This document shows positions 9,348-32,000 of a DNA stretch of 32,000 nt, piece after piece (position 1 is the stretch's first letter; each line of letters opens with the position of its first letter). The stretch covers positions 120,001-152,000 of the forward strand of contig NZ_CP179200.1 of the NCBI RefSeq assembly GCF_051201565.1, given 5' to 3'. A program made the position numbers and the translations under genes. Source of the DNA: Pseudothioglobus sp. nBUS_23 (GTDB taxonomy: Bacteria > Pseudomonadota > Gammaproteobacteria > PS1 > Pseudothioglobaceae). The notes under the pieces are model-generated. The model had not been told where the DNA came from. It saw only the letters and a program-made list of their open reading frames with translations, and searched no databases.

Positions 9348-9368
9348 ATTGGTATTTAATTGGTATTA
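9348..9368. promoter_or_regulatory. Candidate NagQ-type operator 1: tandem AATTGGTATT repeats (TGGTATT-N4-TGGTATT)
   Basis: AATTGGTATT occurs at 9348-9357 and again at 9359-9368, a perfect 10-bp direct repeat with 11-bp period. It abuts the predicted -10 of the minus-strand promoter. Confidence 0.55.
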
Positions 9369-9398
9369 TTATAAACTGACTATTTACAAGCAGTCAAT
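9369..9398 (-). promoter_or_regulatory. Predicted sigma70-type promoter for the regulator-nagA-nagB operon
   Basis: The minus strand reads TTGACT (9398-9393), an 18-nt spacer, then TATAAT (9374-9369). This lies about 70 nt upstream of the regulator start codon. Confidence 0.5.
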
Positions 9399-9533
9399 CT
9401 TTATAACAAAATATAATTGAGAAAATATTAGATCAATATATTTAAAACAAGATTAAAAATTCAATATATAAGGCTTATCTACTTGGCTTTATTGTGATAG
9501 AAACTAAAAAACAATTTTTTTTGAGCATTTAAT

Positions 9534-9563
9534 TTGTTTTTTATTAAATTCCTGTTATATAAT
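9534..9563 (+). promoter_or_regulatory. Predicted sigma70-type promoter for the GH20/ABC/oxidoreductase operon
   Basis: TTGTTT (9534-9539), an 18-nt spacer, then TATAAT (9558-9563). This lies about 80 nt upstream of the ATG at 9646. Confidence 0.45.
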
Positions 9564-9578
9564 ACCATTATATTACCA
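9561..9578. promoter_or_regulatory. Candidate NagQ-type operator 2: inverted copy of the tandem repeat (AATACCA-N4-ATTACCA)
   Basis: AATACCA at 9561-9567 and ATTACCA at 9572-9578. The reverse complement reads TGGTAAT-ATAA-TGGTATT. The site overlaps the predicted -10 of the plus-strand promoter. Confidence 0.5.
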
Positions 9579-9645
9579 ATTTGAAATGAGCTATGTACTC
9601 ATAATTAGTGAGAAATAGCCTTTTTTAAGATAGCGAGAACTGAAG

Positions 9646-13452: not shown

Positions 13453-13530
13453 GAATTAAAATACTCACATTTAGTATTACTAGATCTATTTTATTCTAGT
13501 AATTTGTTGTAAAAATAAAAGGAGAAGTAA

Positions 13531-14736: not shown

Positions 14737-14749
14737 GTCTAGAAACTAA

Positions 14750-14775
14750 TCAGGGGTAATGAAAATTGCCCCTGA
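14750..14775 (+). terminator. Possible intra-operon attenuating hairpin / weak intrinsic terminator after the SBP gene
   Basis: TCAGGGG (14750-14756), a 12-nt loop, then CCCCTGA (14769-14775), followed by ATTTAAT. This is only a weak U-tract. Confidence 0.35.
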
Positions 14776-14899
14776 ATTTAATGAGGTGAGCATTAAAAGT
14801 ACGTTTAATTTATTGAGCGTTCTTTTAGGGCAGGCTTTGTCAAAAGTATTTAATTATTTTAAAAATGCGTATGAAATACGCTTAAGTTAGGAAAGCAAT

Positions 14900-15979: not shown

Positions 15980-15994
15980 AATAGGAGATTAATC

Positions 15995-17149: not shown

Positions 17150-17159
17150 GGAGTAGGTT

Positions 17160-18005
17160 TTGATTAAAGGTATAAGTTATCTCTCTTTTGAGAATGGTCT
17201 TTCAAACAATGAATCTATAGAGTCGGCTTTATCTCAAACTAAAAAAAATGGTTTTGATGCACTTGAACTTTCTGTCTCAAGTGAAGGGGTTATCAATACA
17301 AACACCTCAAAAGCTGAATGCGAAATAATTCGAAAAAAAATTGATGACTCTGGAATTTTTGTTGATAGCATTGCTACTGGAATGAGTTGGGGAGTGAGTC
17401 CAACAAGTAATGACAGGTCGATAAGAGAAAAATCAATTAAACTTCATCAGGATGCATTAAAAGTTGCAAGCTTCCTTGACTGCAAAGCTCTGCTTTTCGT
17501 TCCAGGAGTTGTCAAAAGTCCAATTTCAACGGATATAGTTCGATATGACAAAGCCCTGGATCGACTTAGAGAGGCTATTAATCAAATGTTGCCAATAGCA
17601 GAGGATTTAAATGTTGATTTGTGTATGGAAAATGTATGGAATGGTTTTTTCTACTCACCCATTGAGCTCAGAGATTTTGTAGATTCATTTGATTCGGACA
17701 GGTTAGGTGTCTATCTAGATATAGGAAATTTAATTGGCTATCAGCAATATCCACCGCACTGGGTAGAGCTTCTCAACTCAAGAATTAAAAGAGTTCAGAT
17801 TAAAGATTTTCAGGAGAATTTTGACTGGATAGGTAGCTTCAGTTTTTGTGATATTGGTGCGGGCGATGTTCCGTGGAAAGAGACAATAGCGGCTTTAAAT
17901 GCTATCCAGTACAAGAGCACTATTATTGCTGAAATGCTTCCATGGGACGAGACTATTCTCTCTCGTACCTCAGCAGCAATGGATCAATTATTTAATTTCA
18001 AATAG
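17160..18005 (+). CDS. Xylose-isomerase-like TIM-barrel protein (sugar phosphate isomerase/epimerase family)
   Basis: 281 aa with a TTG start preceded by AAGGAG. Family-like features: ...DLCMENVWNGFF..., LGVYLDIGN and a terminal ...IAEM segment, typical of AP_endonuc_2/IolE-like barrels. Confidence 0.75.
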   Translation: MIKGISYLSFENGLSNNESIESALSQTKKNGFDALELSVSSEGVINTNTSKAECEIIRKKIDDSGIFVDSIATGMSWGVSPTSNDRSIREKSIKLHQDALKVASFLDCKALLFVPGVVKSPISTDIVRYDKALDRLREAINQMLPIAEDLNVDLCMENVWNGFFYSPIELRDFVDSFDSDRLGVYLDIGNLIGYQQYPPHWVELLNSRIKRVQIKDFQENFDWIGSFSFCDIGAGDVPWKETIAALNAIQYKSTIIAEMLPWDETILSRTSAAMDQLFNFK

Positions 18006-18019
18006 ACTTTTTTAACGAT

Positions 18020-19054
18020 ATGGCTAACAAACTTAAGGTTGGAATTATTGGGCTTGGTAGTATGGGATCAACTCATTTGGACATTTATTTAAAAATAAAA
18101 GAAGTTGAGGTGATTGCTATTGCGGATTCAATTCAGAGTAGGCTTGATGGCTCTTCTAAAGCTGAGGGCAATATAAGCGGTCAAGCTGAAGGGGGTGTTA
18201 CTGGATTGAGTGCAATAAAATATCTTGATGGTATGGAGCTTATTGAAAATCCTGACATAGATATAGTTGATATTTGCGTTGGAACAGACCTTCATTTTAC
18301 TTTTGTAGAGGCAGCACTTTCAAAAGGAAAGCATGTTTTGGTCGAAAAACCTTTAGCAAGAACTTATGATGAGGCTAAAAAAATAATTCAATTGGCAGAA
18401 CAATCTAGCAAATATGTTATGTCAGCAATGTGTCTTAGATATTGGCCTGCTTGGGTTTTTCTCAAGGAAGCAATAGATTCAAATGCTTACGGTAAATGCT
18501 TGTCTCTTAACTTTAAGAGGCAAACCAGTTTTCCTGGCGGCGCTTTTTACTCTGACCATAATCAATGCGGCGGAGCGCTTCTAGATCTTCATGTGCATGA
18601 CACTGATTTTGTTAGTTACTGTTTAGGCTTGCCAGAGGCAGTTTTTAGTCAAGGCTATAAAGGGCCAAGTGGAGGGATTGATCATATTGCTACTCATTAT
18701 ATTTACAATCAATCAGATTTATCACCACTAGTTAGCTCTGAAGGATCATGGACTATGCAAGAGGGTTATGGATTTAATATGTCGTACACTGCTAATTTTG
18801 AGAATGGAACTCTCAGTTATCTTTTAGAGCAGGATGAGACCCTTAAACTGTTTAGATCTGGCTCTGAGCCAGAATCAATTAATTTAAAAGAAGGCATGGG
18901 CTATGAATTTGAGATACGCACATTTGTCGATGAAATTTTGTCAGGTAATTCTACAAATCTTGATTTATTGAGGCAGGCTTCAGAGACTATTGCTATTATT
19001 GAGGCAGAAAAGACGAGTATAGAAACCTGTTCATTGGTTTCGATAAAGATTTAA
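18020..19054 (+). CDS. Gfo/Idh/MocA family NAD(P)-dependent oxidoreductase (second paralogue)
   Basis: 344 aa. Rossmann VGIIGLGSMGSTH and the EKP motif (VLVEKPLART). Confidence 0.85.
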   Translation: MANKLKVGIIGLGSMGSTHLDIYLKIKEVEVIAIADSIQSRLDGSSKAEGNISGQAEGGVTGLSAIKYLDGMELIENPDIDIVDICVGTDLHFTFVEAALSKGKHVLVEKPLARTYDEAKKIIQLAEQSSKYVMSAMCLRYWPAWVFLKEAIDSNAYGKCLSLNFKRQTSFPGGAFYSDHNQCGGALLDLHVHDTDFVSYCLGLPEAVFSQGYKGPSGGIDHIATHYIYNQSDLSPLVSSEGSWTMQEGYGFNMSYTANFENGTLSYLLEQDETLKLFRSGSEPESINLKEGMGYEFEIRTFVDEILSGNSTNLDLLRQASETIAIIEAEKTSIETCSLVSIKI

Positions 19055-19617: not shown

Positions 19618-19787
19618 TATTTTCCTTTAATTTTCTGCATTCTTACTAATCCTTAATATATTAACATAATTGAATTTAATTATGCAGCTTTGAATGGGGA
19701 CAATTATAACAATTAGAGGAGTTATTCACTATAGAATGTATTTACCAAATTGCTAAGATTGACCCCACATTTGCTAATCATTTTAAA

Positions 19788-20573
19788 ATGCCAAAAATCT
19801 ATATGTTGCATGCTAAGTTAAAGGTCTTTGTGTTGATATTTGCCTGCCAATTTCTTTTTATCACTCAAGCTTTGTCCAGTGAAATCAGAATTGCAGTGGC
19901 TAGTAATTTCTATTCAACGATGCAGGAGATTATTGTCCAGTTTGAATTAGAAAACACTGATACTTCTAAAGCAAATGAAATAGTTCTTATTCCAGGCTCC
20001 TCGGGAAAACACTTTGCCCAAATTATCAATGGCGCACCTTTTGATCTGTTTTTTTCAGCTGATAAAATAAGACCAACATTACTCGAGGAGCAAGGAGCTA
20101 TCAGAGAACAATCAAGATTCACTTATGCATTAGGAAGGCTTGCACTTTGGAGCCCTAGAAGTCCATTCATTGATTCAGAGGGAGAGGCTCTTTTTGATGA
20201 AGATTTTAGATTTATAGCTATAGCCAATCCTAAAATTGCACCTTATGGAATAGCATCTAAAGAGGTACTTATGTCCATGAAGTTATGGCAAGATTTGAAT
20301 AAAAAAATTGTAAGAGGAGAAAATATTGCACAGACATTTCAATTCGTCAGCAGCGGAAATGCAGAGTTGGGATTTGTTTCATATTCTCAAATTTTAGATT
20401 CAAATTTTAATTTAGGCGGCTCTTTTTGGCTAGTTCCTCAGTCGTTGTATAATCCAATTGAACAGCAAGCAGTGCTTTTAAGAGATAGCACTTTGGCAAG
20501 AGACTTTATTGCGTTTTTAAAATCTGAGAAGGCATTAAATCTAATTAAAAAAAATGGATATGATTTACCCTAA
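19788..20573 (+). CDS. modA: Molybdate ABC transporter periplasmic binding protein
   Basis: 261 aa. Signal peptide plus ModA-like IRIAVASNF, GSSGKHFAQIINGAPFDLFFSAD, APYGIASKEVL. The start may be the ATG at 19803. Followed by modB and modC. Confidence 0.88.
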   Translation: MPKIYMLHAKLKVFVLIFACQFLFITQALSSEIRIAVASNFYSTMQEIIVQFELENTDTSKANEIVLIPGSSGKHFAQIINGAPFDLFFSADKIRPTLLEEQGAIREQSRFTYALGRLALWSPRSPFIDSEGEALFDEDFRFIAIANPKIAPYGIASKEVLMSMKLWQDLNKKIVRGENIAQTFQFVSSGNAELGFVSYSQILDSNFNLGGSFWLVPQSLYNPIEQQAVLLRDSTLARDFIAFLKSEKALNLIKKNGYDLP

Positions 20574-21262
20574 TGTTAAGTGAAACAGATATTTCAGCGA
20601 TTAGTGTTACCATTAAATTGGCTTTACTCAGTACAGCCATATTAATTGCTATTGGAACGCCGCTAGCCTGGTGGTTATCGCAAACAAAGTTTAAATTTAA
20701 AGTTGTATTTGAGGCTATTATTGCATTGCCTCTGATACTGCCGCCAACCGTATTAGGCTTTTATTTACTAATGACATTAGGCTCCAATAGTCCATTAGCT
20801 GGAGTTTTAGAATATTTTGGAGGGGGTTCAATTGCCTTTACTTTCAGTGGCCTAGTTGTTGGATCTGTAATTTACTCACTTCCTTTCGTAGTTCAGCCAC
20901 TTCAAAATTCTTTCAGCACAGTTAGAAGTGAATCTTTGGAAGTGGCAGCAACTTTAGGAGCATCAAATATCGATCGATTTTTTACAGTTGCTGTTCCATT
21001 AGCACGATCTGGTTTTATAACAGCTGCAGTTCTCGGATTTGCCCATACCGTAGGTGAGTTTGGAGTTGTGCTAATGATTGGAGGAAACATTCCAGGCGAA
21101 ACAGGCGTTTTATCAATAGCCATTTATGATCATGTTGAGGCAATGGAGTATTCTCAAGCCCATTTATTAGCTGGTGGTTTACTGGTAGCTTCTTTTGTAA
21201 TGCTAATTTTTGTGTATCTCTTTAATCGTCATTTTTCACTAATGAGGAGCAGGGACTGGTGA
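20573..21262 (+). CDS. modB: Molybdate ABC transporter permease
   Basis: 229 aa, 5-6 TM. EAA-type loop: LEVAATLGASNIDRFFTVAVPLARSG. Its start abuts the modA stop. Confidence 0.9.
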   Translation: MLSETDISAISVTIKLALLSTAILIAIGTPLAWWLSQTKFKFKVVFEAIIALPLILPPTVLGFYLLMTLGSNSPLAGVLEYFGGGSIAFTFSGLVVGSVIYSLPFVVQPLQNSFSTVRSESLEVAATLGASNIDRFFTVAVPLARSGFITAAVLGFAHTVGEFGVVLMIGGNIPGETGVLSIAIYDHVEAMEYSQAHLLAGGLLVASFVMLIFVYLFNRHFSLMRSRDW

Positions 21263-22320
21263 TTGAATGCCAGTTAAAAATCAAGTTAAAAGGCTTCACA
21301 TTAGATGCTAAATTCACTACACCTGATAAGGGTATAACCGTTATTTTTGGACCCTCTGGCTCAGGTAAGACAACATTATTAAGAGCTATTGCAGGTCTTG
21401 AAAAGAGCGATTCAGGTTTTCTTAAAGTTGGCGATTCAATTTGGCAAACAGATGATAATTTTGTTCCAACACATAAACGTCAGATCGGCTATGTATTTCA
21501 GGATGCTGGCTTATTTGATCATCTTGATGTAAGTGGCAACCTTAATTACGTAACAAAAAGAAAAACTGGGCTCAAAAAAGTTTTTATTGATTCAATATAC
21601 ACTTTACTAGATATTGAATCATTACTGAATAGGCGAATAGGTCAGCTTTCAGGTGGTGAAAAGCAGCGGGTTGCAATTGCAAGAGCGTTATTGACTAATC
21701 CCAAAATTTTACTCTTGGATGAGCCTCTATCAGCTCTTGACCTTAAGCGTAAAAATGAAATTCTTCCCTACCTCGATAGTCTTCATAATCAATTAGAGAT
21801 TCCAATTCTTTATGTAACTCACTCACAAGATGAGACCTCAAGACTAGCAGACCACATTATGCTTATTGAAGATGGAAAAATTATTGGGAATGGACCAATT
21901 AATGAGATGTTGACTAGTTTTGAAATGCCCTTGTCTCACAGTGGTGATGCAATATCAATTTTTGAGGTCAGAGTGATTAGTCGTGATACTGATTTTAATT
22001 TGATGCATCTTGAATTTAATGGTGGACAATTTATTGTTCCGGATAATGCGTTGCCAATAGACAGTCTTGTCAGAATAAGAGTTGCAGCACGTGATGTTAG
22101 TATTACAAAAAAGAAGCGGTCTGATACAAGTATTCTAAATATTTTTCCAGCAGTTGTTGAAGAGATAGTTCCTGAAGGGAATGCTCAAGTCATCGTTCGA
22201 CTGACATTGAACGGAGTTGTATTGCTTGCATGCTTGACTAGAAAGTCTTCAGCTTCTCTTAAACTAGACAAAGGATCCAGCGTATTTGTTCAGGTTAAAA
22301 GCGTTGCGATTCTTAACTAG
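21259..22320 (+). CDS. modC: Molybdate ABC transporter ATP-binding protein with C-terminal TOBE/Mop domain
   Basis: 353 aa. GTG start overlapping the modB stop. Walker A GPSGSGKTT, signature LSGGEKQR, Walker B LLLDEPLSALD. C-terminal TOBE-like beta domain. Confidence 0.9.
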   Translation: MIECQLKIKLKGFTLDAKFTTPDKGITVIFGPSGSGKTTLLRAIAGLEKSDSGFLKVGDSIWQTDDNFVPTHKRQIGYVFQDAGLFDHLDVSGNLNYVTKRKTGLKKVFIDSIYTLLDIESLLNRRIGQLSGGEKQRVAIARALLTNPKILLLDEPLSALDLKRKNEILPYLDSLHNQLEIPILYVTHSQDETSRLADHIMLIEDGKIIGNGPINEMLTSFEMPLSHSGDAISIFEVRVISRDTDFNLMHLEFNGGQFIVPDNALPIDSLVRIRVAARDVSITKKKRSDTSILNIFPAVVEEIVPEGNAQVIVRLTLNGVVLLACLTRKSSASLKLDKGSSVFVQVKSVAILN

Positions 22321-23569
22321 TCTGAAGATTGGTTCTGAGTCTTTGGATAGGCCTTTCATCAATAAAGACATGAATAAGCGCAGTAATAGCTGCAATTATT
22401 GCAGCCCACCACCAGACCTGATTATATGAACCAGTTGTGTCAAAAAGGTAGCCCCCAAGCCAAACACCTGTAAATGAGCCAATTTGATGATTTAGGAACA
22501 CGATTCCGTAGAGAGTTCCCATAAATCTCAAACCAAACATCTGGGCGACCAATCCTGAAGTTGGCGGAACTGTAGCAAGCCATAGAAGGCCAGTAGCAAA
22601 AGAGAATGCATAGATTGTAAGTGTAGAAATTGGAATAACAAGAAACAAGACAATCACAACAGACCTTGCTGCATAGATATAAGTCAAAATCCATTTCTTT
22701 GAATAGATTCCAGATAGATGACCAGAGACGAGTGAGCCAATAATATTACAAAGACCAATAATCGATAAGCTAATTGCTGCAACAGAGCTATCAAACCCCT
22801 TATCCGCAAGGTAAGACGGCATATGAACTGTAATAAAGGCTAGCTGAAACCCGCACACAAAAAATCCAGCAATGAGAAGCCAATAATGAATGTGTCCAGA
22901 AGCCTCACTCAGAGCTTCTTTTAGGTTTTGTTGAGGTTCATTATCAACAGTAATATTAGTTTTCACATCACCCTTGAATACGGGCGAAAAAAGAATCATA
23001 ACTAGTGCTCCGATCGCCATCAAGATCAGTGCAACTTGCCACCCATAGGCAACTAGAAACTCTCTTGCAACAGGAATAAAAATGAACTGACCAGCTGAGC
23101 CTGCAGCTGTTCCTACTCCAAGTGCAAGAGCTCTTTTTTCAGGAGCAACCATCCTTGCCATTGCTGGCAGAACAACGCCTAGGCCTGTTCCAGAGATACC
23201 CATTCCAATAAGAATTCCTGCTCCTAAGTGGAGGCCAATAAAGCTGTCAGCGGTTGCTGTAATATAAAGGCCTAGAGAGTAGAAAATCGAGCCCACTATA
23301 ATAACTCTAGAGGTACCAAACTTATCTGCTATTGCACCTGCTATGGGTTGAGACAAGCCCCACAATAGATTTTGAAGTGCTAGAGAGAATGCAAAAACCT
23401 CGCGTCCATATCCGAATGTTTCTGACACAGGCTTTAAGAAAAGACCAAGTGAAGATCTAAAGCCAAAGTTAATAGCCAAAAGAACACTCGCCAATAAAAT
23501 TGCTAAACTAATTATTTTTTTATGATGAGCCATTTGTTTAACAAGAATAGTTTCCGACAGTATAACCAA
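22313..23569 (-). CDS. Major facilitator superfamily transporter (substrate unknown)
   Basis: 418 aa with about 12 hydrophobic helices in a 6+6 arrangement and a central loop. The true start may be Met13 at 23533 (MAHHKKII...). The 3' end overlaps the modC 3' end by 8 nt. Confidence 0.85.
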   Translation of the reverse strand: MVILSETILVKQMAHHKKIISLAILLASVLLAINFGFRSSLGLFLKPVSETFGYGREVFAFSLALQNLLWGLSQPIAGAIADKFGTSRVIIVGSIFYSLGLYITATADSFIGLHLGAGILIGMGISGTGLGVVLPAMARMVAPEKRALALGVGTAAGSAGQFIFIPVAREFLVAYGWQVALILMAIGALVMILFSPVFKGDVKTNITVDNEPQQNLKEALSEASGHIHYWLLIAGFFVCGFQLAFITVHMPSYLADKGFDSSVAAISLSIIGLCNIIGSLVSGHLSGIYSKKWILTYIYAARSVVIVLFLVIPISTLTIYAFSFATGLLWLATVPPTSGLVAQMFGLRFMGTLYGIVFLNHQIGSFTGVWLGGYLFDTTGSYNQVWWWAAIIAAITALIHVFIDERPIQRLRTNLQTS

Positions 23570-23642: not shown

Positions 23643-24356
23643 ATGCGAGTATTGGTTTTTCAGCATGTTGATTGTGAGCACCCTGGATCACTGAGACAAT
23701 TTTTAGCCGAGGACGGCATTGATTGGGATCCTGTTTATTTGCATCGCGGTGATAAAATTCCACATTTTGATGATTATGATGCACTTTGGGTAATGGGTGG
23801 TCCAATGGATGTATGGGATATTGAGGAAAATCCTTGGCTTGTTGATGAAAAAGCTGCAATTCGGCACTGGGTTAAAGATTTAAGAAAGCCTTATCTTGGT
23901 CTTTGTTTGGGGCATCAGTTGCTTGCTGATGCATTGGGCGGAACCTGTGGACCCCAAAAAATTCCAGAAATTGGCGTGCTTGAGATTGAGTTAACTGAAG
24001 AAGGAAAAAAAGATCCGCTATTTAAAGGAACAGCAGAGAAACAGCAATGCCTCCAATGGCACTCTGTCAGGGTTGCTCAGGCGCCTGAGGGAGCAATTAT
24101 TTTGGCGAATTCAGATGTATGTTCAATACAAGCAATGCGAATTGGAAAGAATGCTTGGTCTATGCAGTATCACGTAGAAATAGAGTCGGATACTGTTGAC
24201 AATTGGGGAGCCATTCCAGAATATGCAGAAGCGCTGAGAAATACATTGGGTCAGGGCGCCTTATCAGAACTCAAGCAAAAAACTGATCAAAATATTAGTC
24301 AATGTTTAAGTTGCGCTAAGCAAATTTATGACAACTTTATGGGACAAATAGTTTAG
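23643..24356 (+). CDS. Stand-alone class I glutamine amidotransferase-like protein
   Basis: 237 aa. GATase1 nucleophile elbow GLCLGHQLL (Cys) and the His-x-Glu pair in MQYHVEIE. No fused synthase domain. Confidence 0.8.
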   Translation: MRVLVFQHVDCEHPGSLRQFLAEDGIDWDPVYLHRGDKIPHFDDYDALWVMGGPMDVWDIEENPWLVDEKAAIRHWVKDLRKPYLGLCLGHQLLADALGGTCGPQKIPEIGVLEIELTEEGKKDPLFKGTAEKQQCLQWHSVRVAQAPEGAIILANSDVCSIQAMRIGKNAWSMQYHVEIESDTVDNWGAIPEYAEALRNTLGQGALSELKQKTDQNISQCLSCAKQIYDNFMGQIV

Positions 24357-24493: not shown

Positions 24494-24522
24494 TTGACAC
24501 CGAATTTAATTCAAGGTATCTT
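24494..24522 (+). promoter_or_regulatory. Predicted sigma70-type promoter of the corrinoid methyltransferase operon
   Basis: TTGACA (24494-24499), a 17-nt spacer, then TATCTT (24517-24522). This lies about 50 nt upstream of the ATG at 24572. A GAGGG RBS precedes the start. Confidence 0.45.
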
Positions 24523-24571
24523 TCCGTTTTTTTAAAGTTAAATTTATTCCTAACATTTCGAGGGTTGGCTA

Positions 24572-25276
24572 ATGAGTGAAGAAGACGATTTTGACCTAAA
24601 TGATCTTGATGATAAGGAGCTCGTTGAGCAAATTCAAGATGACCTCTATGATGGTCTTGATGCTGAAGTAACTGAGGGAACTGAAATTCTACTTTCAAGA
24701 GGATGGGATGCTAACGACGTTCTAGGTGAAGCCTTAGTTGGTGGTATGAAGATTGTAGGAATAGATTTCAGGGATGGTATTCTTTTTGTTCCAGAAGTCT
24801 TAAAGTGTGCTGGTGCGATGAAGGGCGGTATGAGTATATTAAGACCTATACTTGCCGAATCAGCTGAAGATACATCATTAGGAAAGTTTGTTATTGGTAC
24901 TGTTAAAGGCGACATTCATGACATCGGTAAAAACCTTGTGGGGATGATGTGTGAGGGAGCAGGGTTTGAGGTCATTGACCTCGGCATTAACAATCCTGTT
25001 GAAAACTATTTAGAGGCAGTTGATACTCATGAGCCGGTTATCCTTGGAATGTCTGCATTACTCACCACAACAATGCCTTACATGGGAGTTGTTGTTGAGG
25101 AAATGGAAAAAAGAGGAATGCGAAAAGACGTACACATAATGTGTGGCGGCGCTCCTTTGAATCAAGAATTTGCTGATTCAATTGGTGTGCCTGCTTATGG
25201 TCGTGATGCTGCAAGAAGTGCTGAAATGGCCGAAGAACATGTCCGCGGCCTTGGTAAAAACCGTGCTCACAGATAA
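24572..25276 (+). CDS. Corrinoid (cobalamin-binding) methyl-carrier protein, MtgC/MttC-like
   Basis: 234 aa. B12-binding_2 helical cap plus a Rossmann-like B12-binding domain with DxHxxG (GDIHDIGKN), SxL (SALLTTT) and GG (CGGAPL) motifs. The N-terminal extension is unusually acidic. Confidence 0.9.
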   Translation: MSEEDDFDLNDLDDKELVEQIQDDLYDGLDAEVTEGTEILLSRGWDANDVLGEALVGGMKIVGIDFRDGILFVPEVLKCAGAMKGGMSILRPILAESAEDTSLGKFVIGTVKGDIHDIGKNLVGMMCEGAGFEVIDLGINNPVENYLEAVDTHEPVILGMSALLTTTMPYMGVVVEEMEKRGMRKDVHIMCGGAPLNQEFADSIGVPAYGRDAARSAEMAEEHVRGLGKNRAHR

Positions 25277-25898
25277 GGCAGTTGTTGATGAAAATAATAA
25301 AAGATTAGTATTAGGTTGTGGTGCGCTTGTTTACGATCTTTTAAGATTGTTAAAGCAAAACCCTTCGTTTTCAGATAGAGTCAACATTCAATGCTTACCT
25401 GCTAGTTGGCACAACTCCCCCCAATTAATTGCACCAGGTGTGGAGAAGTATTTGTCTGAGAATGCTCATCTTTATAAGGAAGTATATATAGCCTATGCTG
25501 ATTGTGGAACTGGTGGGGCGCTTGATAAGGTGCTCAATAAGTATAAGGCGAAACGAATAGAGGGAGCTCATTGCTATGAATTTTTTGCAGGTACAGATGC
25601 TTTTGAAAAACTTTCAGAAGAGGAAATAGGAACTTTTTATCTGACCGACTATTTGGTTAAAAATTTCAACAGGATAATGATTAAAGGTCTTGGACTTGAT
25701 AAGCATCCTGAACTTTTTGATGCCTACTTTAAGCATTATAAAAAACTTGTTTATTTGGCTCAAACAGAAAATGATGATTGGAAAAAAGATGCAGAGAAAT
25801 ACGCTAAGGATTTTGGTTTTGATTATGAATATAGGCTAGTAGGAACAGGGAGTCTTGATTCTGTTTTTGAAGAAATAGACATTGGGTTGTTAAGTTAA
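25239..25898 (+). CDS. DUF1638-like protein (unknown function, associated with corrinoid methyltransferase operons)
   Basis: The ORF frame is open from 25170. The domain-like core starts near KRLVLGCGALVYDLL. Plausible starts are ATG 25239 and GTG 25263, both overlapping the corrinoid gene 3' end. ATG 25170 would give a 107-nt overlap and a hydrophobic, likely spurious N-terminus. The family assignment is from memory of DUF1638 context and is uncertain. Confidence 0.6.
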   Translation: MSAALVKTVLTDKAVVDENNKRLVLGCGALVYDLLRLLKQNPSFSDRVNIQCLPASWHNSPQLIAPGVEKYLSENAHLYKEVYIAYADCGTGGALDKVLNKYKAKRIEGAHCYEFFAGTDAFEKLSEEEIGTFYLTDYLVKNFNRIMIKGLGLDKHPELFDAYFKHYKKLVYLAQTENDDWKKDAEKYAKDFGFDYEYRLVGTGSLDSVFEEIDIGLLS

Positions 25899-25921
25899 GA
25901 GTTATTTAGGATGAAAGAATT

Positions 25922-26824
25922 ATGTCAATTTTAAGTGCATTCACCTCAAAAGAGGAAAATATAAAGGTGAGCGAATCTCTTAAAGATTTTTTGGGTGATT
26001 TTTCAATAGAGGTTATGCCCCGTACTGCCTCAAAAATTGAGAGTTTCACTGAAATATTGCCCCAGAGCACTAGAATCTATATAGCCCATATTGAGGGTGT
26101 GCCTATTGAGGAGATGGTTGAAACTGCTAAAAGACTTGCTAGTGAGGGGTTTAATGTGATGCCTCATTTTCCAGCTCGCATCATTAAAGATAAGAGTATG
26201 CTCGATGACTGGATAAATAGATATCAGGGTGAGGCAGGAATTGAACAAGCGCTGCTTCTAGCTGGAGGAGTCAGTAAGCCTCATGGGGATTATGAAAACT
26301 CAATGCAGCTTGTTGAAACAGAATTATTTGAAAAATATAATTTTAAACACTTGCATTTTGCTGGACATCCAGAGGGTAATAAAGATATTGACTCCGATGG
26401 CTCAAATAAAAATGTTGATGCGGCCTTAAGTTGGAAGCAGAAATTTAAAGAACGGACTGATATTGCTTTGGCTTTAACTACACAATTCTGTTTTGAGGCT
26501 GAACCTGTTATTGAGTGGGCGAATTCATTGACCTCGAAAGGAATAGATATACCAATTCATATTGGGGTTGCTGGACCTGCTAAATTGCAGACATTGATTA
26601 AGTTTTCCATTGCTTGCGGGGTAGGACCATCACTTAGGGTTTTGCAAAAAAGAGCAAAAGATGTTAAGAAGTTACTACTACCTTTTGAGCCAAATGAGTT
26701 TTTAGAAGCTCTAGCTGAGCACAAAAAAGCAAATCCTGGCTTCAATATTACCAATATTCATTTTTTCCCATTGGGAGGGATTAATGTTAATGCTTCATGG
26801 ATAAAGAGCGCAACAAATAACTAA
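25922..26824 (+). CDS. metF: Methylenetetrahydrofolate reductase family protein (MetF-like)
   Basis: 300 aa TIM-barrel MTHFR-like protein (SIEVMPRTA..., ...ALLLAGG..., ...HFAGHPEG...). Sits between corrinoid and pterin-methyltransferase genes. The gene symbol is tentative. Confidence 0.7.
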   Translation: MSILSAFTSKEENIKVSESLKDFLGDFSIEVMPRTASKIESFTEILPQSTRIYIAHIEGVPIEEMVETAKRLASEGFNVMPHFPARIIKDKSMLDDWINRYQGEAGIEQALLLAGGVSKPHGDYENSMQLVETELFEKYNFKHLHFAGHPEGNKDIDSDGSNKNVDAALSWKQKFKERTDIALALTTQFCFEAEPVIEWANSLTSKGIDIPIHIGVAGPAKLQTLIKFSIACGVGPSLRVLQKRAKDVKKLLLPFEPNEFLEALAEHKKANPGFNITNIHFFPLGGINVNASWIKSATNN

Positions 26825-26840
26825 CTTAGGAGTAAATAAA

Positions 26841-27737
26841 TTGGCAACAACGACACTATCATCAACCTCCAAAGAGGTAACAATCGGCTTTGGCCATCCA
26901 TTTGTAATGATTGGAGAAAGGATTAATCCTACTGGAAGAAAAATTCTAGCTGCAGAAATGAAGGAAGGGGATTACTCAAGGGTAGTTGCTGATGCAATAG
27001 CACAAGTTGAAGCTGGTGCTCAAATGCTCGATGTCAATGCAGGTATTCCTTTGGCTGATGAACCTGCGATTCTTGCTGAGTCTATTAGGCGCGTGCAGGC
27101 AGTTGTAGACGTTCCCATATCAATTGACTCATCAATTATTGAGGCGCTTGAGTCTGGATTGGCAGCTTATCAAGGTAGAGCTCTTGTCAACTCTACTACC
27201 GGTGAAACTGAGGTTCTTGAACGTGTTCTCCCTTTAGTGAAGAAATATGATGCTGCGGTTGTTGCTATTTCAAATGATGAGACTGGTATCAGTGAGGATC
27301 CAAATGAAAGATTCAAGGTTGCTAAAAAGATTGTTGAGCATGCAGCTGATTATGGCATTAAACCTCAAGATGTAGTAGTTGATCCTCTGGTCATGCCAAT
27401 CGGTGCAATCTCTCAAGCTGGTAATCAAGTTTTTGAATTAGTAAGAAAGCTCAGAAGTGAGTTAAAGGTAAATACTACCTGTGGCGCATCCAATGTAAGT
27501 TTTGGATTGCCACAAAGGAATGGAATAAATAATGCTTTCTTGCCGATGCTAATTGCTGCAGGAATGACCTCTGCAATTGTTAATCCTTTGCATCCAGAGC
27601 TTGTGCAAGCAATTAGAGCAGGTGATGTTTTAACTGGAGTGGATGAGGGTTGTACGACTTGGATATCGGCCTATAAAGAACCTGCAAAAGAGGGTGATAA
27701 TCCCAGAGGTGAAAGGAGAAGAAGGAGACGCGCATAA
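26841..27737 (+). CDS. Pterin-binding methyltransferase (methyl-corrinoid:tetrahydrofolate methyltransferase, MtgA/AcsE/MetH-pterin-domain-like)
   Basis: 298 aa. TTG start preceded by TAGGAG. Pterin_bind features: IGERINPTGRK, MLDVNAG, SIDSS, LVNS, and CGASNVSFGLPQR. The C-terminus ends GERRRRRRA. Confidence 0.85.
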   Translation: MATTTLSSTSKEVTIGFGHPFVMIGERINPTGRKILAAEMKEGDYSRVVADAIAQVEAGAQMLDVNAGIPLADEPAILAESIRRVQAVVDVPISIDSSIIEALESGLAAYQGRALVNSTTGETEVLERVLPLVKKYDAAVVAISNDETGISEDPNERFKVAKKIVEHAADYGIKPQDVVVDPLVMPIGAISQAGNQVFELVRKLRSELKVNTTCGASNVSFGLPQRNGINNAFLPMLIAAGMTSAIVNPLHPELVQAIRAGDVLTGVDEGCTTWISAYKEPAKEGDNPRGERRRRRRA

Positions 27738-27740
27738 TTT

Positions 27741-28145
27741 ATGCCGAGTGTTGAGTATAAAGGTTCTTGTGTTTGTGGAAAGACGTCATATATAGCGTAT
27801 GATTTAAATGACATTTCATACTGCCATTGCGAACAGTGTAGAAAAATGACTGGACACTTTATGGCTGCCTCTCAAGTAAGTAGAGATAACATTAAGATCA
27901 AGGGTAAGATAAAGTGGTTTTATACTCACAAAGGTTCAAGACATGGCTTTTGTGATAATTGTGGAGCCAATATGTTTTGGCAGAATGATGACAAGTCTAC
28001 TATAAGCGTAACAGCAGGCAGTCTCGAGGATTCAAAGGGTTTGAAAACTTGGCACCATATATTTGTTGAAGAAAAAGGGTGTTATTACAATATCAATTCT
28101 AATAGCCCTCAATTCAAAGGATATGGTGAAAGTAATATTGATTGA
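27741..28145 (+). CDS. GFA/CENP-V family zinc-binding protein (glutathione-dependent formaldehyde-activating enzyme fold)
   Basis: 134 aa. Cys pattern CVCG...CHCEQCRK...CDNCG is typical of GFA domains. The start lies 3 nt after the preceding stop, behind AGGAGA. Confidence 0.8.
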   Translation: MPSVEYKGSCVCGKTSYIAYDLNDISYCHCEQCRKMTGHFMAASQVSRDNIKIKGKIKWFYTHKGSRHGFCDNCGANMFWQNDDKSTISVTAGSLEDSKGLKTWHHIFVEEKGCYYNINSNSPQFKGYGESNID

Positions 28146-30094
28146 TAATAGAGATGGAAGATAATTTTCAAGTATGTTTTACCCCTTCAGGTCGTCAATT
28201 TAAAGGCGAATTTGGAGACACTTTGCTTCAGGTTGCCCAGGATGCTGGAGTTGCAATACGCTCATTATGTGGGGGCTATGGCCAGTGCCATCAATGTTGG
28301 ATTGAAGTTTCTGAGGGCGAACATTCAAAATTTGGCGTTAAGTGTGAACCTGATAATGTCAGTGCTGTCACTAGGCTTGAAAAACAATTAATAATTGATA
28401 ATCCAACCTATAAGGGTAAGAGATTGGCTTGCCAATCTTGTATTCAGGGCGACCTTGTGATTGATGTTCCCGAGGAAAGTCAAGAGCATAAAGCCTATAT
28501 CAGTAAAAAAAATGAAAAGCAGAATTATACAGTTGCAAGTGCAATTAGTCTTTTTGATTGCACTCTGGACGAGTCAACCCTTGATGAGAATCCATCTGCA
28601 TCTGAAAACTTAGTTGCTCAACTAGACAAACAAGGTGTTAAAGCAAAGATTGACTTTAATCTTTTAAGAGGCTTGCAGCCTCTAATTCATGAAACCAAAG
28701 GAAATCTAACAGTTGCAGTTCGAGATAATAAACAAATTGTCGCTGCATACCCTCAAGGAAAACTTCAAATATTCGGCGCGGCAATTGATATAGGGTCTAC
28801 CACTCTAGCATTGTATGTCTATGATTTAAAAGATGGAGAATTAGTTTTTGAATCCTCAGCAATGAACCCACAAATTCGTTTTGGTGAAGATCTAATGAGT
28901 AGGGTTTCATACGTGATGATGAATAAAGGTGGGGATGAAAAATTAACAATTGCTGTTAGAACAAAAATCACTGAAATGCTTCATGATGCATGCGAAAACC
29001 TTGAGGTGGAATGGGATAAATTACTAGAAGTTGTTCTAGTTGGAAATCCAATTATGCACCATATATTTTTTGGAATCTCTCCAGTTGAATTGGGACAGGC
29101 TCCTTTCACTCTCTCTATTCGAAGCTGGCTAGATGTTGATGCCAAGGATTTAAGTTTTGAACTTTATCCAAAAACGAGATTATCATTTTTTCCTCTAATA
29201 GCTGGACATGTCGGTGCAGATACTGCAGCTGCCTATCTTAGCCAAATTGATATCATGCATTCCGAAACAACTTTACTTGTTGATATTGGTACAAATGCTG
29301 AAATTATGCTTTCCAAAAATGGCAAAGTATATGCAACCTCCTCACCCACAGGCCCTGCTTTTGAAGGTGCTGAAATTAGTTCTGGTGTTAGAGCAACCTA
29401 TGGTGCAATTGAGAGAGTGAGAATAGACAAAGAGACTTTAAAGGTTCGCTTTAAAGTGATTGGCTGTGATGCGTGGTCAGATGAGCCAGATTTTGAATTA
29501 GTTCAAATGAAGGCGGTTGGAATTTGTGGAAGTGGAATTATTGAGGCCATTGTTGCATTTGCCGAAGCTGGGATAATAGATCAAAGTGGGCTTTTTGTTG
29601 AGTCAATTGCACCTGAGCTTTTTTCAAAAAAAGGAAATACCACTCGTTTTTTATTAGTTGATCAGGGTGATAAATCAATTTATATTGAGCAAGTAGATAT
29701 TCGATCTATTCAGTTGGCTAAGGCTGCACTATCTGCAGGGGTATCAATACTGATGGACTATCTCGAATGTGATCACTTTGATAGAATACTGCTAGCAGGT
29801 GCTTTTGGAGCGCATTTAGATGCTAGATATGTTGCTTTGCTGGATATTATTCCAACTTCAACTGCTGAAAAAATCGTTTCAGTAGGAAATGCTGCAGGTA
29901 TCGGAGCAAGTGCAGCGCTATTGGATGTTAATAAGCGTAACGCAATTATTGAAGCTGTTGACAAGGTAGTGAAGATTGAAACCGCTACTGAACCAAGGTT
30001 TCAGGAGTTTTTTGTTGAAGCAATGAAGTTCAGTGTATCACCAGTAGAGCAACAACAAACCAAAAAAGTTAGACGCCGAAAACGAGTGTCATAA
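28142..30094 (+). CDS. RACo/RamA-type ATP-dependent reductive activase of corrinoid proteins ([2Fe-2S] ferredoxin domain + ASKHA ATPase domain)
   Basis: About 646-650 aa. The start is either TTG 28142 (4-nt overlap with the GFA stop) or ATG 28154. N-terminal plant-type ferredoxin cysteines (CGGYGQCHQC...LACQ). ASKHA phosphate motifs AIDIGSTT and LVDIGTNAE, then GICGSG. The C-terminus ends KKVRRRKRVS. Confidence 0.88.
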   Translation: MIIEMEDNFQVCFTPSGRQFKGEFGDTLLQVAQDAGVAIRSLCGGYGQCHQCWIEVSEGEHSKFGVKCEPDNVSAVTRLEKQLIIDNPTYKGKRLACQSCIQGDLVIDVPEESQEHKAYISKKNEKQNYTVASAISLFDCTLDESTLDENPSASENLVAQLDKQGVKAKIDFNLLRGLQPLIHETKGNLTVAVRDNKQIVAAYPQGKLQIFGAAIDIGSTTLALYVYDLKDGELVFESSAMNPQIRFGEDLMSRVSYVMMNKGGDEKLTIAVRTKITEMLHDACENLEVEWDKLLEVVLVGNPIMHHIFFGISPVELGQAPFTLSIRSWLDVDAKDLSFELYPKTRLSFFPLIAGHVGADTAAAYLSQIDIMHSETTLLVDIGTNAEIMLSKNGKVYATSSPTGPAFEGAEISSGVRATYGAIERVRIDKETLKVRFKVIGCDAWSDEPDFELVQMKAVGICGSGIIEAIVAFAEAGIIDQSGLFVESIAPELFSKKGNTTRFLLVDQGDKSIYIEQVDIRSIQLAKAALSAGVSILMDYLECDHFDRILLAGAFGAHLDARYVALLDIIPTSTAEKIVSVGNAAGIGASAALLDVNKRNAIIEAVDKVVKIETATEPRFQEFFVEAMKFSVSPVEQQQTKKVRRRKRVS

Positions 30095-30114
30095 TTATAG
30101 TATGGAGAATTTAA

Positions 30115-31662
30115 ATGGCTAGAGAAAGAAGAAGACGTAGAGGTGGATCTGAAGAAAAATCAGATTCAAATAGCATTCCTAAAGCGCCTGCATATATTAA
30201 ACGAAAAATACCACACTACAGTATTCTAAGTGATGATGATCTTAGTATTATTGAAGAAAATGCAGATACCATTCTAGAAGAGATTGGCATTGTTTTTTCT
30301 GAAGATCAAGAGGCACTTGATATCCTTGAAAAAGCTGGCGCAAGTGTTGATGGTATGAGAGTTAGATTTCCAAGAGGAATGTGCCGAAAACTAATTCAAG
30401 ATAATGCGCCAAAGCAGTTTACTCAATATGCACGAAATCCTGAAAGAAATGTTGAGATTGGGGGTAACAATATGGTTTTAGTGCCTGCTTATGGCCCCCC
30501 ATTTGTTCATGATCTCGATGAGGGTCGACGCTACGCAACAATTGAGGATTTTAGGAATTTTATTAAACTTGCTTACTTGTCAGATAATCTTCATCATTCA
30601 GGTGGAACCATTTGTGAGCCAGTTGACTTACCAGTTAATAAGCGCCACTTCGATATGGTGTACAGTCACATTAAATATTCTGATAAGCCTTTCATGGGCT
30701 CTGTTACTGCTGCAGAAAGAGCGCAGGATTCAGTTGATATGGTGAAAATAGTATTCGGAGATGAGTTTGTTGATAAAAACTGTGTATTGATTAATTTAAT
30801 TAATGCTAGTTCCCCAATGTCGTTTGATGCAACAATGTTGGGCGCACTTAAAGTCTATGCACGAAATAATCAAGCAACAATAATAACACCATTTATTGTT
30901 GCAGGAGCTATGGCTCCTACAACTGCAGTAGGTGTTGCAGCGCAAAGCCTGGCAGAAGGACTAGCAGGAATGGCATTTGCTCAGCTCATTAGACCAGGAG
31001 CGCCAGTCATTTATGGGAATTTTGTAACTGCAATGTCTATGAAATCTGGGGCGCCAACTTTTGGCACTCCTGAGGCCGCACATATGATGAATATTTCTGG
31101 AGCATTAGCGAGGCGATTGGGTGTTCCATTTCGAAGTGGGGGTGGCTTTAATGGAGCAAAGATGCCAGATGCTCAGGCAGGCTATGAAGCAGCTAACACT
31201 ATGCAAGCAACCCTGAATGCAAGTGTGAATTTTAATCTTCATACTGCTGGATGGCTTGAAGGTGGATTATGCATGAGTTATGAAAAATTTATTATGGATG
31301 CTGATCAAGCTGGGATGATGCGAGTTTCTGCTGAGGGAATTGATATGACTGAAAATGGTCAGGCAATGGAGGCAATTAGAGAAATTGGAAGTTTTTCAGA
31401 TGATGTGCCTAAGCATTATTTAGGATGTGAACACACCAAGAGAAATTTTAAGACAGCTTTTTATATGTCAGATGTTCTTGACGATAATAGTTTTGAACAG
31501 TGGGTTCAAGACGGTTCAAGAGATACAGCCTTGATTGCAAATGGGATTTATAAGAAAATGCTTTCAGACTATGAGTTGCCTCCACTAGATCCAGAAATTG
31601 ATAAGGCATTACTTGCATATATGAAGAGTAGAAAAGATAGTTTTGAGGATTCTAATGTTTAA
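30115..31662 (+). CDS. MttB-superfamily methyltransferase, non-pyrrolysine type (quaternary amine:corrinoid methyltransferase; substrate undetermined)
   Basis: 515 aa uninterrupted ORF with no in-frame TAG. MttB-family length and TIM-barrel-like core (…GAPTFGTPEAA…PDAQAGYE…HTAGWLEGGL…). The N-terminus is MARERRRRRGG. RBS GGAG lies upstream. Confidence 0.88.
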   Translation: MARERRRRRGGSEEKSDSNSIPKAPAYIKRKIPHYSILSDDDLSIIEENADTILEEIGIVFSEDQEALDILEKAGASVDGMRVRFPRGMCRKLIQDNAPKQFTQYARNPERNVEIGGNNMVLVPAYGPPFVHDLDEGRRYATIEDFRNFIKLAYLSDNLHHSGGTICEPVDLPVNKRHFDMVYSHIKYSDKPFMGSVTAAERAQDSVDMVKIVFGDEFVDKNCVLINLINASSPMSFDATMLGALKVYARNNQATIITPFIVAGAMAPTTAVGVAAQSLAEGLAGMAFAQLIRPGAPVIYGNFVTAMSMKSGAPTFGTPEAAHMMNISGALARRLGVPFRSGGGFNGAKMPDAQAGYEAANTMQATLNASVNFNLHTAGWLEGGLCMSYEKFIMDADQAGMMRVSAEGIDMTENGQAMEAIREIGSFSDDVPKHYLGCEHTKRNFKTAFYMSDVLDDNSFEQWVQDGSRDTALIANGIYKKMLSDYELPPLDPEIDKALLAYMKSRKDSFEDSNV

Positions 31663-31852
31663 AAGGGACGAATCTCAGATTTATTAGAATTCAAGCTATT
31701 ATGAATTTAATTATTAATAGCATAAAAAATTTGTAAGATAATATCTAGACTAAAAATCTTACGTCAAAAAAGCAATTTCTTGCCACCAAAATGATTAGTG
31801 GTCATGGATTTGTTTCTTTATTTTATGCTTTACATCGCAATTGGGAGAAGAA

Positions 31853-32000
31853 ATGAGCGAGTACAAAACAGATATTGACATTGCTAGAGAAGTTTCTGGT
31901 GAACATATAAATGATATTGGAGCAAAGCTCAACATTAATAAGGAGGACCTAGTTCCCTTTGGGCATGACAAAGCTAAGATTTCATGGAGTGCAATTGATG
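31853..32000 (+). CDS. fhs: Formate--tetrahydrofolate ligase, N-terminal fragment (runs off window)
   Basis: MSEYKTDIDIAREVSGEHINDIGAKLNINKEDLVPFGHDKAKIS matches the typical Fhs N-terminus (SDIEIA...I..IA.KLGI....L..YG.YKAKI). RBS GGGAGAAG lies upstream. Confidence 0.85.
   Translation, partial: MSEYKTDIDIAREVSGEHINDIGAKLNINKEDLVPFGHDKAKISWSAID

Follow-up and report, generated by a model that had tools for sequence, protein, structure and literature searches.

Does a marine bacterium of aerobic lineage carry, in a single operon, a complete corrinoid-dependent route from an N-methylated compound to formate, and if so, what does the route act on and is it new? The question is raised by positions 24494-32000 of a 32,000-nt stretch of the genome of Pseudothioglobus sp. 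nBUS_23 (contig NZ_CP179200.1, positions 120,001 to 152,000; the whole stretch is hereafter called the window). An earlier note, made from the letters alone, had described this region as a methyltransferase and methyl-tetrahydrofolate (CH3-THF) oxidation operon built around an MttB homolog, and had judged it novel on the premise that non-pyrrolysine (non-Pyl) MttB enzymes have been characterized in strict anaerobes alone. Our analysis indicates that the region is quite probably the SUP05/ARCTIC96BD-19 version of the aerobic, cobalamin-dependent MtgBCD system, in which quaternary-amine demethylation is joined to folate-linked one-carbon (C1) oxidation. The system itself is already known, having been published in 2025 for aerobic marine bacteria with SUP05 named among its carriers (PMC12478193), so the premise of a strictly anaerobic enzyme family, and with it the claim to novelty, does not hold.

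The predicted genes of the region all lie on the + strand, and seven of them are closely packed, encoding in order a corrinoid protein, a DUF1638 protein, a methylenetetrahydrofolate reductase (MTHFR)-like protein, a pterin methyltransferase, a GFA protein, a RACo-type activase and the MttB homolog. Their junctions consist of a 38-nt overlap between the first two genes, gaps of 23, 16 and 3 nt, a 4-nt overlap and a gap of 20 nt, and the formate-THF ligase gene, fhs, starts 190 nt 3' of the end of mttB. Annotation relied on Pfam, NCBIfam and PDB sequence searches, with Rfam scanned at gathering threshold, and it bears out every gene assignment of the earlier note as well as its account of the spacing. 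The coordinate from which that account began, 24494, proves to be the first base of a promoter-like site, TTGACA-17-TATCTT (24494..24522, + strand; 10/12 in a consensus scan). The site lies within a conserved block that also contains GAATTTAATTCAAG, and this block, AATTTAATGATTGACACCGAAATTAATTCAAGGTATCTTTCC, is kept in 15 SUP05-lineage loci with diverging flanks.

Relatives of the operon were collected by a locus search that admitted one genome per species and returned 80 loci (L numbers below), each examined as a stretch of ~21 kb. By tblastn, the order MtgC-DUF1638-MTHFR-MtgD-GFA-RACo-MttB-Fhs is kept in 23 SUP05-lineage loci, and the core MtgC-DUF1638-MtgD-RACo-MttB is also found in Granulosicoccaceae, Woeseiaceae, Actinomycetota and Chloroflexota. 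SAR324 loci carry MttB, MtgC, DUF1638 and MtgD, with RACo unmatched within the stretch examined. The MttB homolog is 95-97% identical to proteins of Candidatus Pseudothioglobus singularis, of single-amplified genomes (SAGs) labeled 'uncultured gamma proteobacterium' or SUP05, and of Thiotrichales or SUP05 metagenome-assembled genomes. The host branch is ARCTIC96BD-19 of the SUP05 clade, an aerobic lineage, and the type strain of the branch is reported as isolated as an aerobic sulfur oxidizer (work cited in PMC4616169). Both the aerobic host and the AT-rich genome (GC about 0.30-0.41) envisaged at the outset are thereby upheld. The possibility of a recently acquired horizontal island was considered and is ruled out by the uniform GC of the window together with the synteny of the operon throughout the SUP05 lineage.

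The methyl-transferring core of the operon is formed by a corrinoid carrier and a pterin methyltransferase. The first gene (24572..25276, + strand) encodes an mtgC-like, stand-alone carrier composed of a cap and a Rossmann B12 domain (PF02310, E 4e-24; PF02607, E 6e-13) that matches PDB 1y80 at E 3e-49 and is 62-70% identical to copies in other phyla. Its motif DxHxxG...SxL...GG, read here as DIHDIG, SAL and GG, fits the His-on mode of cobalamin binding first suggested for it. The mtgD-like gene (26841..27737, + strand) encodes a putative methylcorrinoid:THF methyltransferase with the pterin-binding TIM barrel of AcsE, MeTr and MetH (PF00809, E 2e-30). This protein scores 361 bits on NF005719 (cut-off 259) and matches PDB 2yck at E 1e-42, its nearest structures being MeTr/AcsE and MetH.

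Two further genes point to upkeep of the corrinoid cofactor. The product of 28142..30094 (+ strand) is a RACo-type ATP-dependent reductive activase in which four Pfam domains occur in order (PF14574, E 9e-77, with PF17651, PF17650 and PF00111), giving an N-terminal [2Fe-2S] ferredoxin (Fer2), a linker, a middle domain and an ASKHA domain; it aligns over its full length, residues 9-627, with PDB 3zyy (E 1.5e-70). On the AcsV equivalog model it reaches 319 bits against a cut-off of 800, and is therefore a member of the RACo family, not an AcsV ortholog. The DUF1638 protein (25239..25898, + strand; 219 aa; PF07796, E 2e-28), whose ATG start we refined in agreement with database gene models, is encoded by the gene that overlaps mtgC. 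An AlphaFold2 model built from a 30-sequence alignment shows an alpha/beta protein of medium confidence (predicted local distance difference test score 77.8). A Foldseek search of this model against the PDB returned nothing at E<=1e-3, with template modeling scores below 0.35, so the fold yields no functional clue.

The last gene of the packed set (30115..31662, + strand) encodes a 515-aa, MtgB-like member of the non-Pyl MttB superfamily of substrate:corrinoid methyltransferases (PF06253, 720 bits). The gene is an uninterrupted open reading frame (ORF) of 515 codons and thus has no in-frame UAG, as had been claimed, and its score of 242 bits on the Pyl-MttB model TIGR02369 (cut-off 525) leaves it outside the Pyl-dependent class. 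Among PDB entries the best match is 4yyc (662 bits), followed by the Desulfitobacterium hafniense MtgB structures 2qne and 9yce (411-413 bits), with Pyl-MttB (7xcl) at 120 bits.

The earlier note had considered the sequence unable to reveal the substrate, a view that now seems too pessimistic. In D. hafniense MtgB, mutagenesis and the ligand-bound structure 9YCE define a site in which Y97 and F356 make cation-pi contacts and R312 and H348 bind the carboxylate (PMC13080624). A phmmer alignment to 9YCE (45% identity; chain numbering is native minus 2) equates Y126, R340 and H376 of the window protein with Y97, R312 and H348, so that three of the four glycine-betaine-binding residues are kept. 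The same alignment places G384 at F356, G383 at Y355 and W380 at I352, and the pocket motif HTAGWLEGGL covers residues 376-385. Y126, R340, H376, W380, G383 and G384 are invariant in seven orthologs from Gamma- and Alphaproteobacteria, SAR324, Actinomycetota and Chloroflexota, within an orthogroup that is tight (58-65% identity). Gly-Gly hence replaces Y355-F356 throughout the aerobic orthogroup, 4YYC included, and one of the four betaine-binding residues is missing or relocated. From its position in the alignment, W380 might compensate for F356 as a second aromatic residue that has moved.

The gene neighborhoods of the orthologs point in the same direction as the conserved pocket residues. 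In L053 the ortholog is followed immediately by a DAO-FAO_M-GCV_T protein, then by MtgC, DUF1638, MtgD, a serine dehydratase and Fhs, and in L068 the order is RACo, MttB, a DAO-FAO_M-GCV_T protein, and the beta and alpha subunits of the electron-transfer flavoprotein (ETF); the orthologs in these two loci are 60-62% identical to the window MttB. The DAO-FAO_M-GCV_T architecture is that of dimethylglycine/sarcosine dehydrogenases, and neighbors of dimethylglycine dehydrogenase (DMGDH) type occur within 10 kb in 24 of 81 loci. Among them are L022 and L025, from SUP05-related metagenome-assembled genomes, which carry a DMGDH/sarcosine-dehydrogenase-type gene upstream of the operon (615-3077 and 579-3080, respectively, - strand), where the transporter and amidotransferase genes that flank the window operon (described below) were not matched. 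This arrangement points to a next demethylation step that has been lost or moved elsewhere in particular lineages. Taken together, pocket residues and orthologous gene context favor glycine betaine, which we consider the likely substrate, with another carboxylated quaternary amine taking most of the remaining probability.

The direction in which the methyl group would travel is indicated by the third gene (25922..26824, + strand). Its product, here called MetF2, is weakly matched by Pfam and TIGRFAM (E 1e-3 and 4e-7) and by the ordinary MTHFR 1v93 (E 5e-4), against E 3.9e-48 for S6MTHFR of Sphingobium SYK-6 (PDB 7xg9). S6MTHFR is a type 4 MTHFR that oxidizes CH3-THF and does not use NADH, and enzymes of this type are paired with THF-dependent demethylases (PMC11868366). 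Aligned to 7xg9, MetF2 keeps S6MTHFR residues F215, C219 and P268 (as F228, C232 and P283) and deviates at L48 (I57), P49 (Glu) and F269 (Leu). By this homology MetF2 probably runs from CH3-THF to CH2-THF. The parallel that the earlier note had drawn with the Sphingobium ligM-metF-ligH genes is accordingly stronger than it was put, being one of homology and not of analogy alone.

The same slot is filled differently in neighboring lineages. Pseudothioglobus-type loci have a single S6MTHFR-like gene between DUF1638 and mtgD, and in Thioglobus autotrophicus-like SUP05 loci, Granulosicoccaceae, Woeseiaceae and Sinorhizobium meliloti the slot is occupied by MetV (DUF5981) together with a canonical MetF (for example L019 5180-6645 and L081 5449-7124). 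The presence of MetV and MetF at this position in sister lineages implies that the Pseudothioglobus branch swapped a two-subunit MTHFR for a type-4-like gene in situ.

Downstream, the window ends within fhs (31853..32000, + strand), whose 49 N-terminal residues match PF01268 at E 1.6e-7. The gene is full-length in L002, a 97%-identical syntenic locus, where positions 11739-18639 hold fhs, then fdhD and genes for a NuoF-like subunit and for the alpha subunit of a formate dehydrogenase (TIGR01591, 777 bits). By homology these downstream genes encode a putative NAD-linked molybdenum formate dehydrogenase of the molybdopterin type, and with them the neighborhood spans the distance from methyl capture to CO2. 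Upstream of the operon, 19788..22320 (+ strand) encodes a molybdate transporter, ModABC, with a modA match of 189 bits to TIGR01256, a permease and an ATPase with a TOBE domain. Molybdate uptake, methyl oxidation and formate oxidation are thus clustered, and ModABC possibly supplies molybdenum to the downstream formate dehydrogenase.

These assignments lead us to propose the following sequence of events. The MttB homolog would bind a quaternary amine that carries a carboxylate, with glycine betaine as the likeliest candidate, and hand one N-methyl group to Co(I)-MtgC, yielding CH3-Co(III)-MtgC and dimethylglycine. MtgD would transfer the methyl group from MtgC to tetrahydrofolate, and the S6MTHFR-type MetF2 would oxidize the resulting CH3-THF to CH2-THF. 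FolD and Fhs would then free formate with a gain of ATP, and the molybdenum formate dehydrogenase encoded downstream in syntenic genomes would oxidize the formate to CO2. Inactive Co(II)-MtgC, which is to be expected often in an oxic cell, would be re-reduced with ATP by the [2Fe-2S]/ASKHA RACo-type activase, alongside the DUF1638 protein. The methyl route originally proposed, from N-methyl through CH3-Co(III), CH3-THF and CH2-THF towards formate, is supported by both homology and context.

The closest functional precedent is the aerobic MtgBCD(E) glycine-betaine demethylase and split methionine synthase that Mausz et al. (PNAS 2025) described in Ruegeria pomeroyi DSS-3 on the basis of knock-outs and proteomics (PMC12478193). 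Growth on glycine betaine induces MtgB1 and MtgB2 (PF06253), MtgC, MtgD, MetF2, a RamA-like activase and a DUF1638 protein, and knock-outs of mtgC and mtgD can no longer grow on glycine betaine and are auxotrophic for methionine (PMC12478193). Homologs were reported in SAR116, SAR324 and SUP05, often in operons with cobalamin-reactivation and C1-oxidation genes, and 10% of oceanic mtgC reads were gammaproteobacterial, including Candidatus Thioglobus (PMC12478193). In Dataset S2 of that study, SUP05 SAGs carry MtgC at 64%, MtgB1 at 56%, MtgB2 at 47-49% and MtgD at 57% identity; MtgE-like matches of 48-51% occur in some of these SAGs and a classical MetH of 55-58% in many (PMC12478193). R. pomeroyi and the window share the component list at the level of protein families, with a non-Pyl PF06253 protein in the place of MtgB, and also an aerobic marine host and the probable entry of the methyl group into THF-linked C1 oxidation. 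The R. pomeroyi genes are scattered, whereas those of the window are gathered in a compact operon that is followed by fhs and, in a syntenic locus, by formate dehydrogenase genes, includes a GFA gene and has no mtgE nearby. Given this placement and the classical MetH of SUP05, the methionine-synthase role may be dispensable here.

An orthologous cluster is found in S. meliloti, which Mausz et al. cited for its co-localized MtgBCDE genes (PMC12478193). Identities between the window and this cluster are 65% for MtgC, 42% for DUF1638, 63% for MtgD, 42% for RACo and 60% for MttB. The S. meliloti region encodes an ASKHA protein, a methyl-THF cobalamin methyltransferase, an MTHFR with a C-terminal-domain partner, a DUF1638 protein, a cobalamin-binding protein and an MttB-family protein that is identical over the aligned stretch to PDB 4YYC, deposited as a 'putative trimethylamine methyltransferase'. 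The pocket motif HxAGWLEGGL is common to this protein and the window MttB. The two clusters differ in that the S. meliloti genes are split on two strands, have MetV and MetF instead of a type-4-like MTHFR, and include bmt/MtgE (PF02574) and a betaine/proline ABC transporter, both of which the window cluster lacks.

Other known systems resemble the window in part. The MtgB/MtgC/MtgA/RamA system of D. hafniense (PDB 2QNE, 9YCE; PMC13080624) follows the same reaction logic around a TIM barrel 45% identical to the window MttB, but its host is anaerobic and its MtgC falls in a different clade from that of the window in the published phylogeny (PMC12478193). The THF methyltransferase is AcsE/MetH-like in the window and is the separately named MtgA in D. 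hafniense. An older precedent for aerobic corrinoid chemistry is the cmu chloromethane pathway (cmuA, cmuB, metF2, folD, purU) of aerobic Methylorubrum/Methylobacterium. Both the cmu pathway and the window route combine aerobic corrinoid methyl transfer to THF with MetF2-type oxidation to formate; the CmuA methyltransferase, however, is an MtaA-like N-terminal domain and not an MttB-family protein, and formate is released by PurU in the cmu pathway and would be released by Fhs here. Aerobic MtgC is closest to CmuA (PMC12478193). Sphingobium lignivorans SYK-6 and the window both combine an MTHFR of this family or close to it with a CH3-THF-producing demethylase, putative in the window, and a formyl-THF enzyme; LigM, the demethylase of SYK-6, is corrinoid-independent and of GcvT type. 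The published survey of type 4 MTHFRs took in partners of LigM, DesA, CmuAB and Dmt, not MttB systems (PMC11868366). Finally, in Phaeobacter inhibens, Price et al. (2018) found by fitness genetics during aerobic growth that a RamA-like protein and a DUF1638 protein are needed for a three-part methionine synthase (PMC5764234). The corrinoid, pterin, activase and DUF1638 modules are the same as in the window, but there they serve methionine synthesis with a homocysteine-binding module and without MttB. A requirement for activase and DUF1638 in an aerobe having been demonstrated in 2018, aerobic upkeep of Co(I) is not new.

Several observations weigh against assigning the window to aerobic glycine-betaine demethylation and C1 oxidation. 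The MtgC-like protein stays below the cut-offs of two anaerobe-type NCBIfam MtgC models, with 199 bits (cut-off 370) on the better one, MtgC_2, and 149 bits (cut-off 310) on the other. The replacement of F356 by Gly matters because an F356L change in D. hafniense MtgB raises Km several hundred-fold (PMC13080624). A gene for oxidizing dimethylglycine or sarcosine and a recognized betaine transporter were looked for in the window and in 10 kb of downstream sequence in L002, and neither was found; folD is not in the window, and purU likewise was not seen. We infer co-transcription of the operon from gene spacing alone, and fhs, which the earlier note had counted in a single route with the other genes, probably has its own transcript. 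The catalytic steps, the substrate and the direction of flux are all predictions from homology and gene context. In R. pomeroyi itself, MtgB is implicated by induction alone (PMC12478193). This last point also qualifies the fate of a caveat in the earlier note, that the MttB homolog might turn out to belong to an already characterized glycine-betaine system of aerobic relatives: the locus essentially does match such a system, with the induction-based assignment of MtgB as the part that falls short.

The alternative that survives best, although we regard it as unlikely, keeps the same machinery and changes the methylated osmolyte to proline betaine, carnitine, gamma-butyrobetaine, beta-alanine betaine, trigonelline or homarine. 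Both positions of the aromatic pair, F356 and Y355 of MtgB, are Gly in the window MttB, and MtpB, MtcB, MtyB and MthB, enzymes that act on other substrates, also have different residues there (PMC13080624). The genes for dimethylglycine processing and betaine uptake missing from the window fit a different osmolyte as well, and genomes may hold up to seven MttB paralogs, for which other methylated compounds have been suggested as substrates (PMC12478193). Against this, pocket residues are invariant within the tight orthogroup, and in several phyla its members have DMGDH-type, ETF and serine dehydratase genes as neighbors, the S. meliloti member adjoining bmt and the betaine ABC transporter. Y97, R312 and H348 of D. 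hafniense MtgB are kept at 45% overall identity, and the SUP05 MtgB is 56% identical to the glycine-betaine-induced MtgB1 of R. pomeroyi (PMC12478193). We therefore retain glycine betaine as the favored substrate.

Methionine synthesis could instead be the main task of the operon: MtgC and MtgD would be central to a split methionine synthase that moves the methyl group of CH3-THF onto homocysteine by way of a separately encoded MtgE, and MttB would be a side entrance. The methionine auxotrophy of the R. pomeroyi mtgC and mtgD mutants (PMC12478193), the need of P. inhibens for corrinoid and pterin pieces, a RamA-like activase and DUF1638 in making methionine (PMC5764234), and the MtgE-like matches in some SUP05 SAGs (PMC12478193) all speak for it. 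A homocysteine-binding PF02574 gene is nevertheless absent from the window and the syntenic flanks, and many SUP05 SAGs have the classical MetH (PMC12478193). The operon, moreover, contains an MTHFR that resembles the oxidative type and is followed by fhs and, in L002, formate dehydrogenase genes, and the unit ends with mttB, its best-conserved gene. Methionine synthesis as the principal role is very improbable; it may still be a secondary function in a dual role. Least credible of all is a reversed, Wood-Ljungdahl-like flux from formate through CH3-THF to CH3-Co and on to a methyl acceptor, an anabolic branch suggested by the likeness of MtgD to AcsE/MeTr and of the activase to Carboxydothermus RACo, by a general resemblance to the AcsE, corrinoid iron-sulfur protein (CFeSP) and RACo set, and by the presence of Fhs and MTHFR, since there is neither carbon monoxide dehydrogenase/acetyl-CoA synthase nor a large or small CFeSP subunit, the corrinoid protein is of MtgC/MtbC type, the operon encodes a substrate methyltransferase of the MttB family, the MTHFR resembles the type that oxidizes CH3-THF without using NADH (PMC11868366), and the host is aerobic with O2-dependent enzymes in the window.

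A further component encoded in the operon is the GFA protein (27741..28145, + strand), a zinc protein of GFA/CENP-V fold (PF04828, E 1e-18; PDB 8ajq, E 3e-8). The seven Cys residues of its two Zn sites are kept in all 28 aligned copies, which come from the SUP05 lineage and two other loci. The subfamily is small, with 41 database clusters at E<=1e-10, each at least 47% identical; the sole named cluster is from Candidatus Thioglobus, and two come from contigs on which the operon's MttB is encoded as well. The gene sits inside the operon in 26 of 26 SUP05-lineage loci where it was seen, in the same slot in L002-L029 and L040. This slot holds an unrelated 112-aa ORF in S. meliloti and is empty in most other lineages, and the supplementary text files of Mausz et al. 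(PMC12478193) do not mention a GFA gene. From this distribution the GFA gene appears to be a lineage-specific accessory whose subfamily is found almost nowhere outside the operon. It might trap formaldehyde leaking from CH2-THF or handle a thiol. To two bolder readings we give a rather low probability: that the GFA protein is a hitherto unrecognized accessory in corrinoid methyl transfer of aerobes, and that the proteobacterial and actinobacterial orthogroup binds its quaternary amine in a different aromatic cage and favors some other substrate over glycine betaine.

The regulation of the locus can be approached through its intergenic sequences. An alignment of 17 SUP05-lineage spacers shows that the mttB-fhs spacer (31663..31852, + strand) contains a conserved, promoter-like block of its own, AATTCAAGC..TTATGAATTTAATTA..TTTGTAAGATAAT, and the consensus scan gives a promoter-like match at 31714-31742. 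A terminator was looked for in this spacer and none was seen. The conserved block upstream of fhs is the reason for regarding fhs as probably a separate transcript. Terminators that would split the operon internally are not indicated, as terminator-like sites number 5 against 5.5 in shuffled sequences, and the Rfam scan of the whole window found zero RNA families and thus no known cobalamin riboswitch. The window contains three copies of the 10-mer GAATTTAATT against 0.44 expected by chance, each of them on the + strand: at 19672-19681, 5' of modA; at 24502-24511, 5' of mtgC; and at 31703-31712, 5' of fhs. The copies at mtgC and fhs sit in blocks conserved among SUP05 loci. Three matches were also reached in 1 of 100 shuffles, so the significance of the count is weak. 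Its placement at the modA, mtgC and fhs promoters hints that one regulator may act through a common operator, in which case mod, mtg and fhs may form a regulon.

In the sea, the pathway has been presented as a major route from glycine betaine, an abundant osmolyte, to energy and ammonium, tied to the availability of vitamin B12 (PMC12478193). The combination of Co(I) chemistry and a dedicated activase in an aerobe was already established, and the window leaves that knowledge unchanged. What it adds is a clean single-operon example in a cultivable, genome-streamlined relative of SUP05, in which a single neighborhood shows every link between methyl capture and formate dehydrogenase, possibly together with the uptake of the molybdate that the dehydrogenase requires. 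The operon would be useful as a compact construct for heterologous reconstitution and as a marker locus for betaine use in SUP05. In the sources consulted we have not met the operon-confined GFA subfamily, the MTHFR swap or the motif common to modA, mtgC and fhs; the novelty that remains lies in the GFA accessory, the swap, the altered aromatic cage and the possible mod-mtg-fhs regulon.

Two genes separate modABC from the operon. The first (22313-23569, - strand) encodes a major facilitator superfamily (MFS) transporter of the oxalate/formate-antiporter or lactate-transporter family by Pfam and NCBIfam, with all matches below cut-off, and the second (23643-24356, + strand) a class-I glutamine amidotransferase (Pfam, NCBIfam). 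An MFS transporter and a glutamine amidotransferase stand upstream of the operon in 17 SUP05-lineage loci, and the transporter could move formate or the substrate.

Farther upstream lie the two O2-dependent enzymes on which the earlier note had drawn in describing the host as aerobic, and both assignments stand. The product of 5865-6581 is an ETHE1-type persulfide dioxygenase of metallo-beta-lactamase fold. We also considered glyoxalase II for this gene, for which NCBIfam is ambiguous, and rejected it because PDB matches clearly favor persulfide dioxygenases (182-203 bits, against 66 for glyoxalase II). The product of 2925-5231 (- strand) contains the PrnB, heme-dioxygenase-like, domain (E 1.7e-182) in a 768-aa fusion with a class-V aminotransferase/kynureninase-like pyridoxal-phosphate domain, possibly a fusion enzyme of tryptophan-type catabolism. 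A gene for an Lrp/AsnC-type regulator (5374-5868) adjoins it. Near the start of the window, 900-1472 is a 190-aa ORF with zero Pfam matches at E<=1e-3. Between the persulfide dioxygenase gene and modABC, 6626-19054 forms a chitobiose/N-acetylglucosamine utilization block with nagB-like and nagA-like genes, a GntR/UTRA regulator, a GH20 hexosaminidase, an ABC sugar transporter, two GFO/IDH/MocA oxidoreductases and a xylose-isomerase-like TIM barrel.

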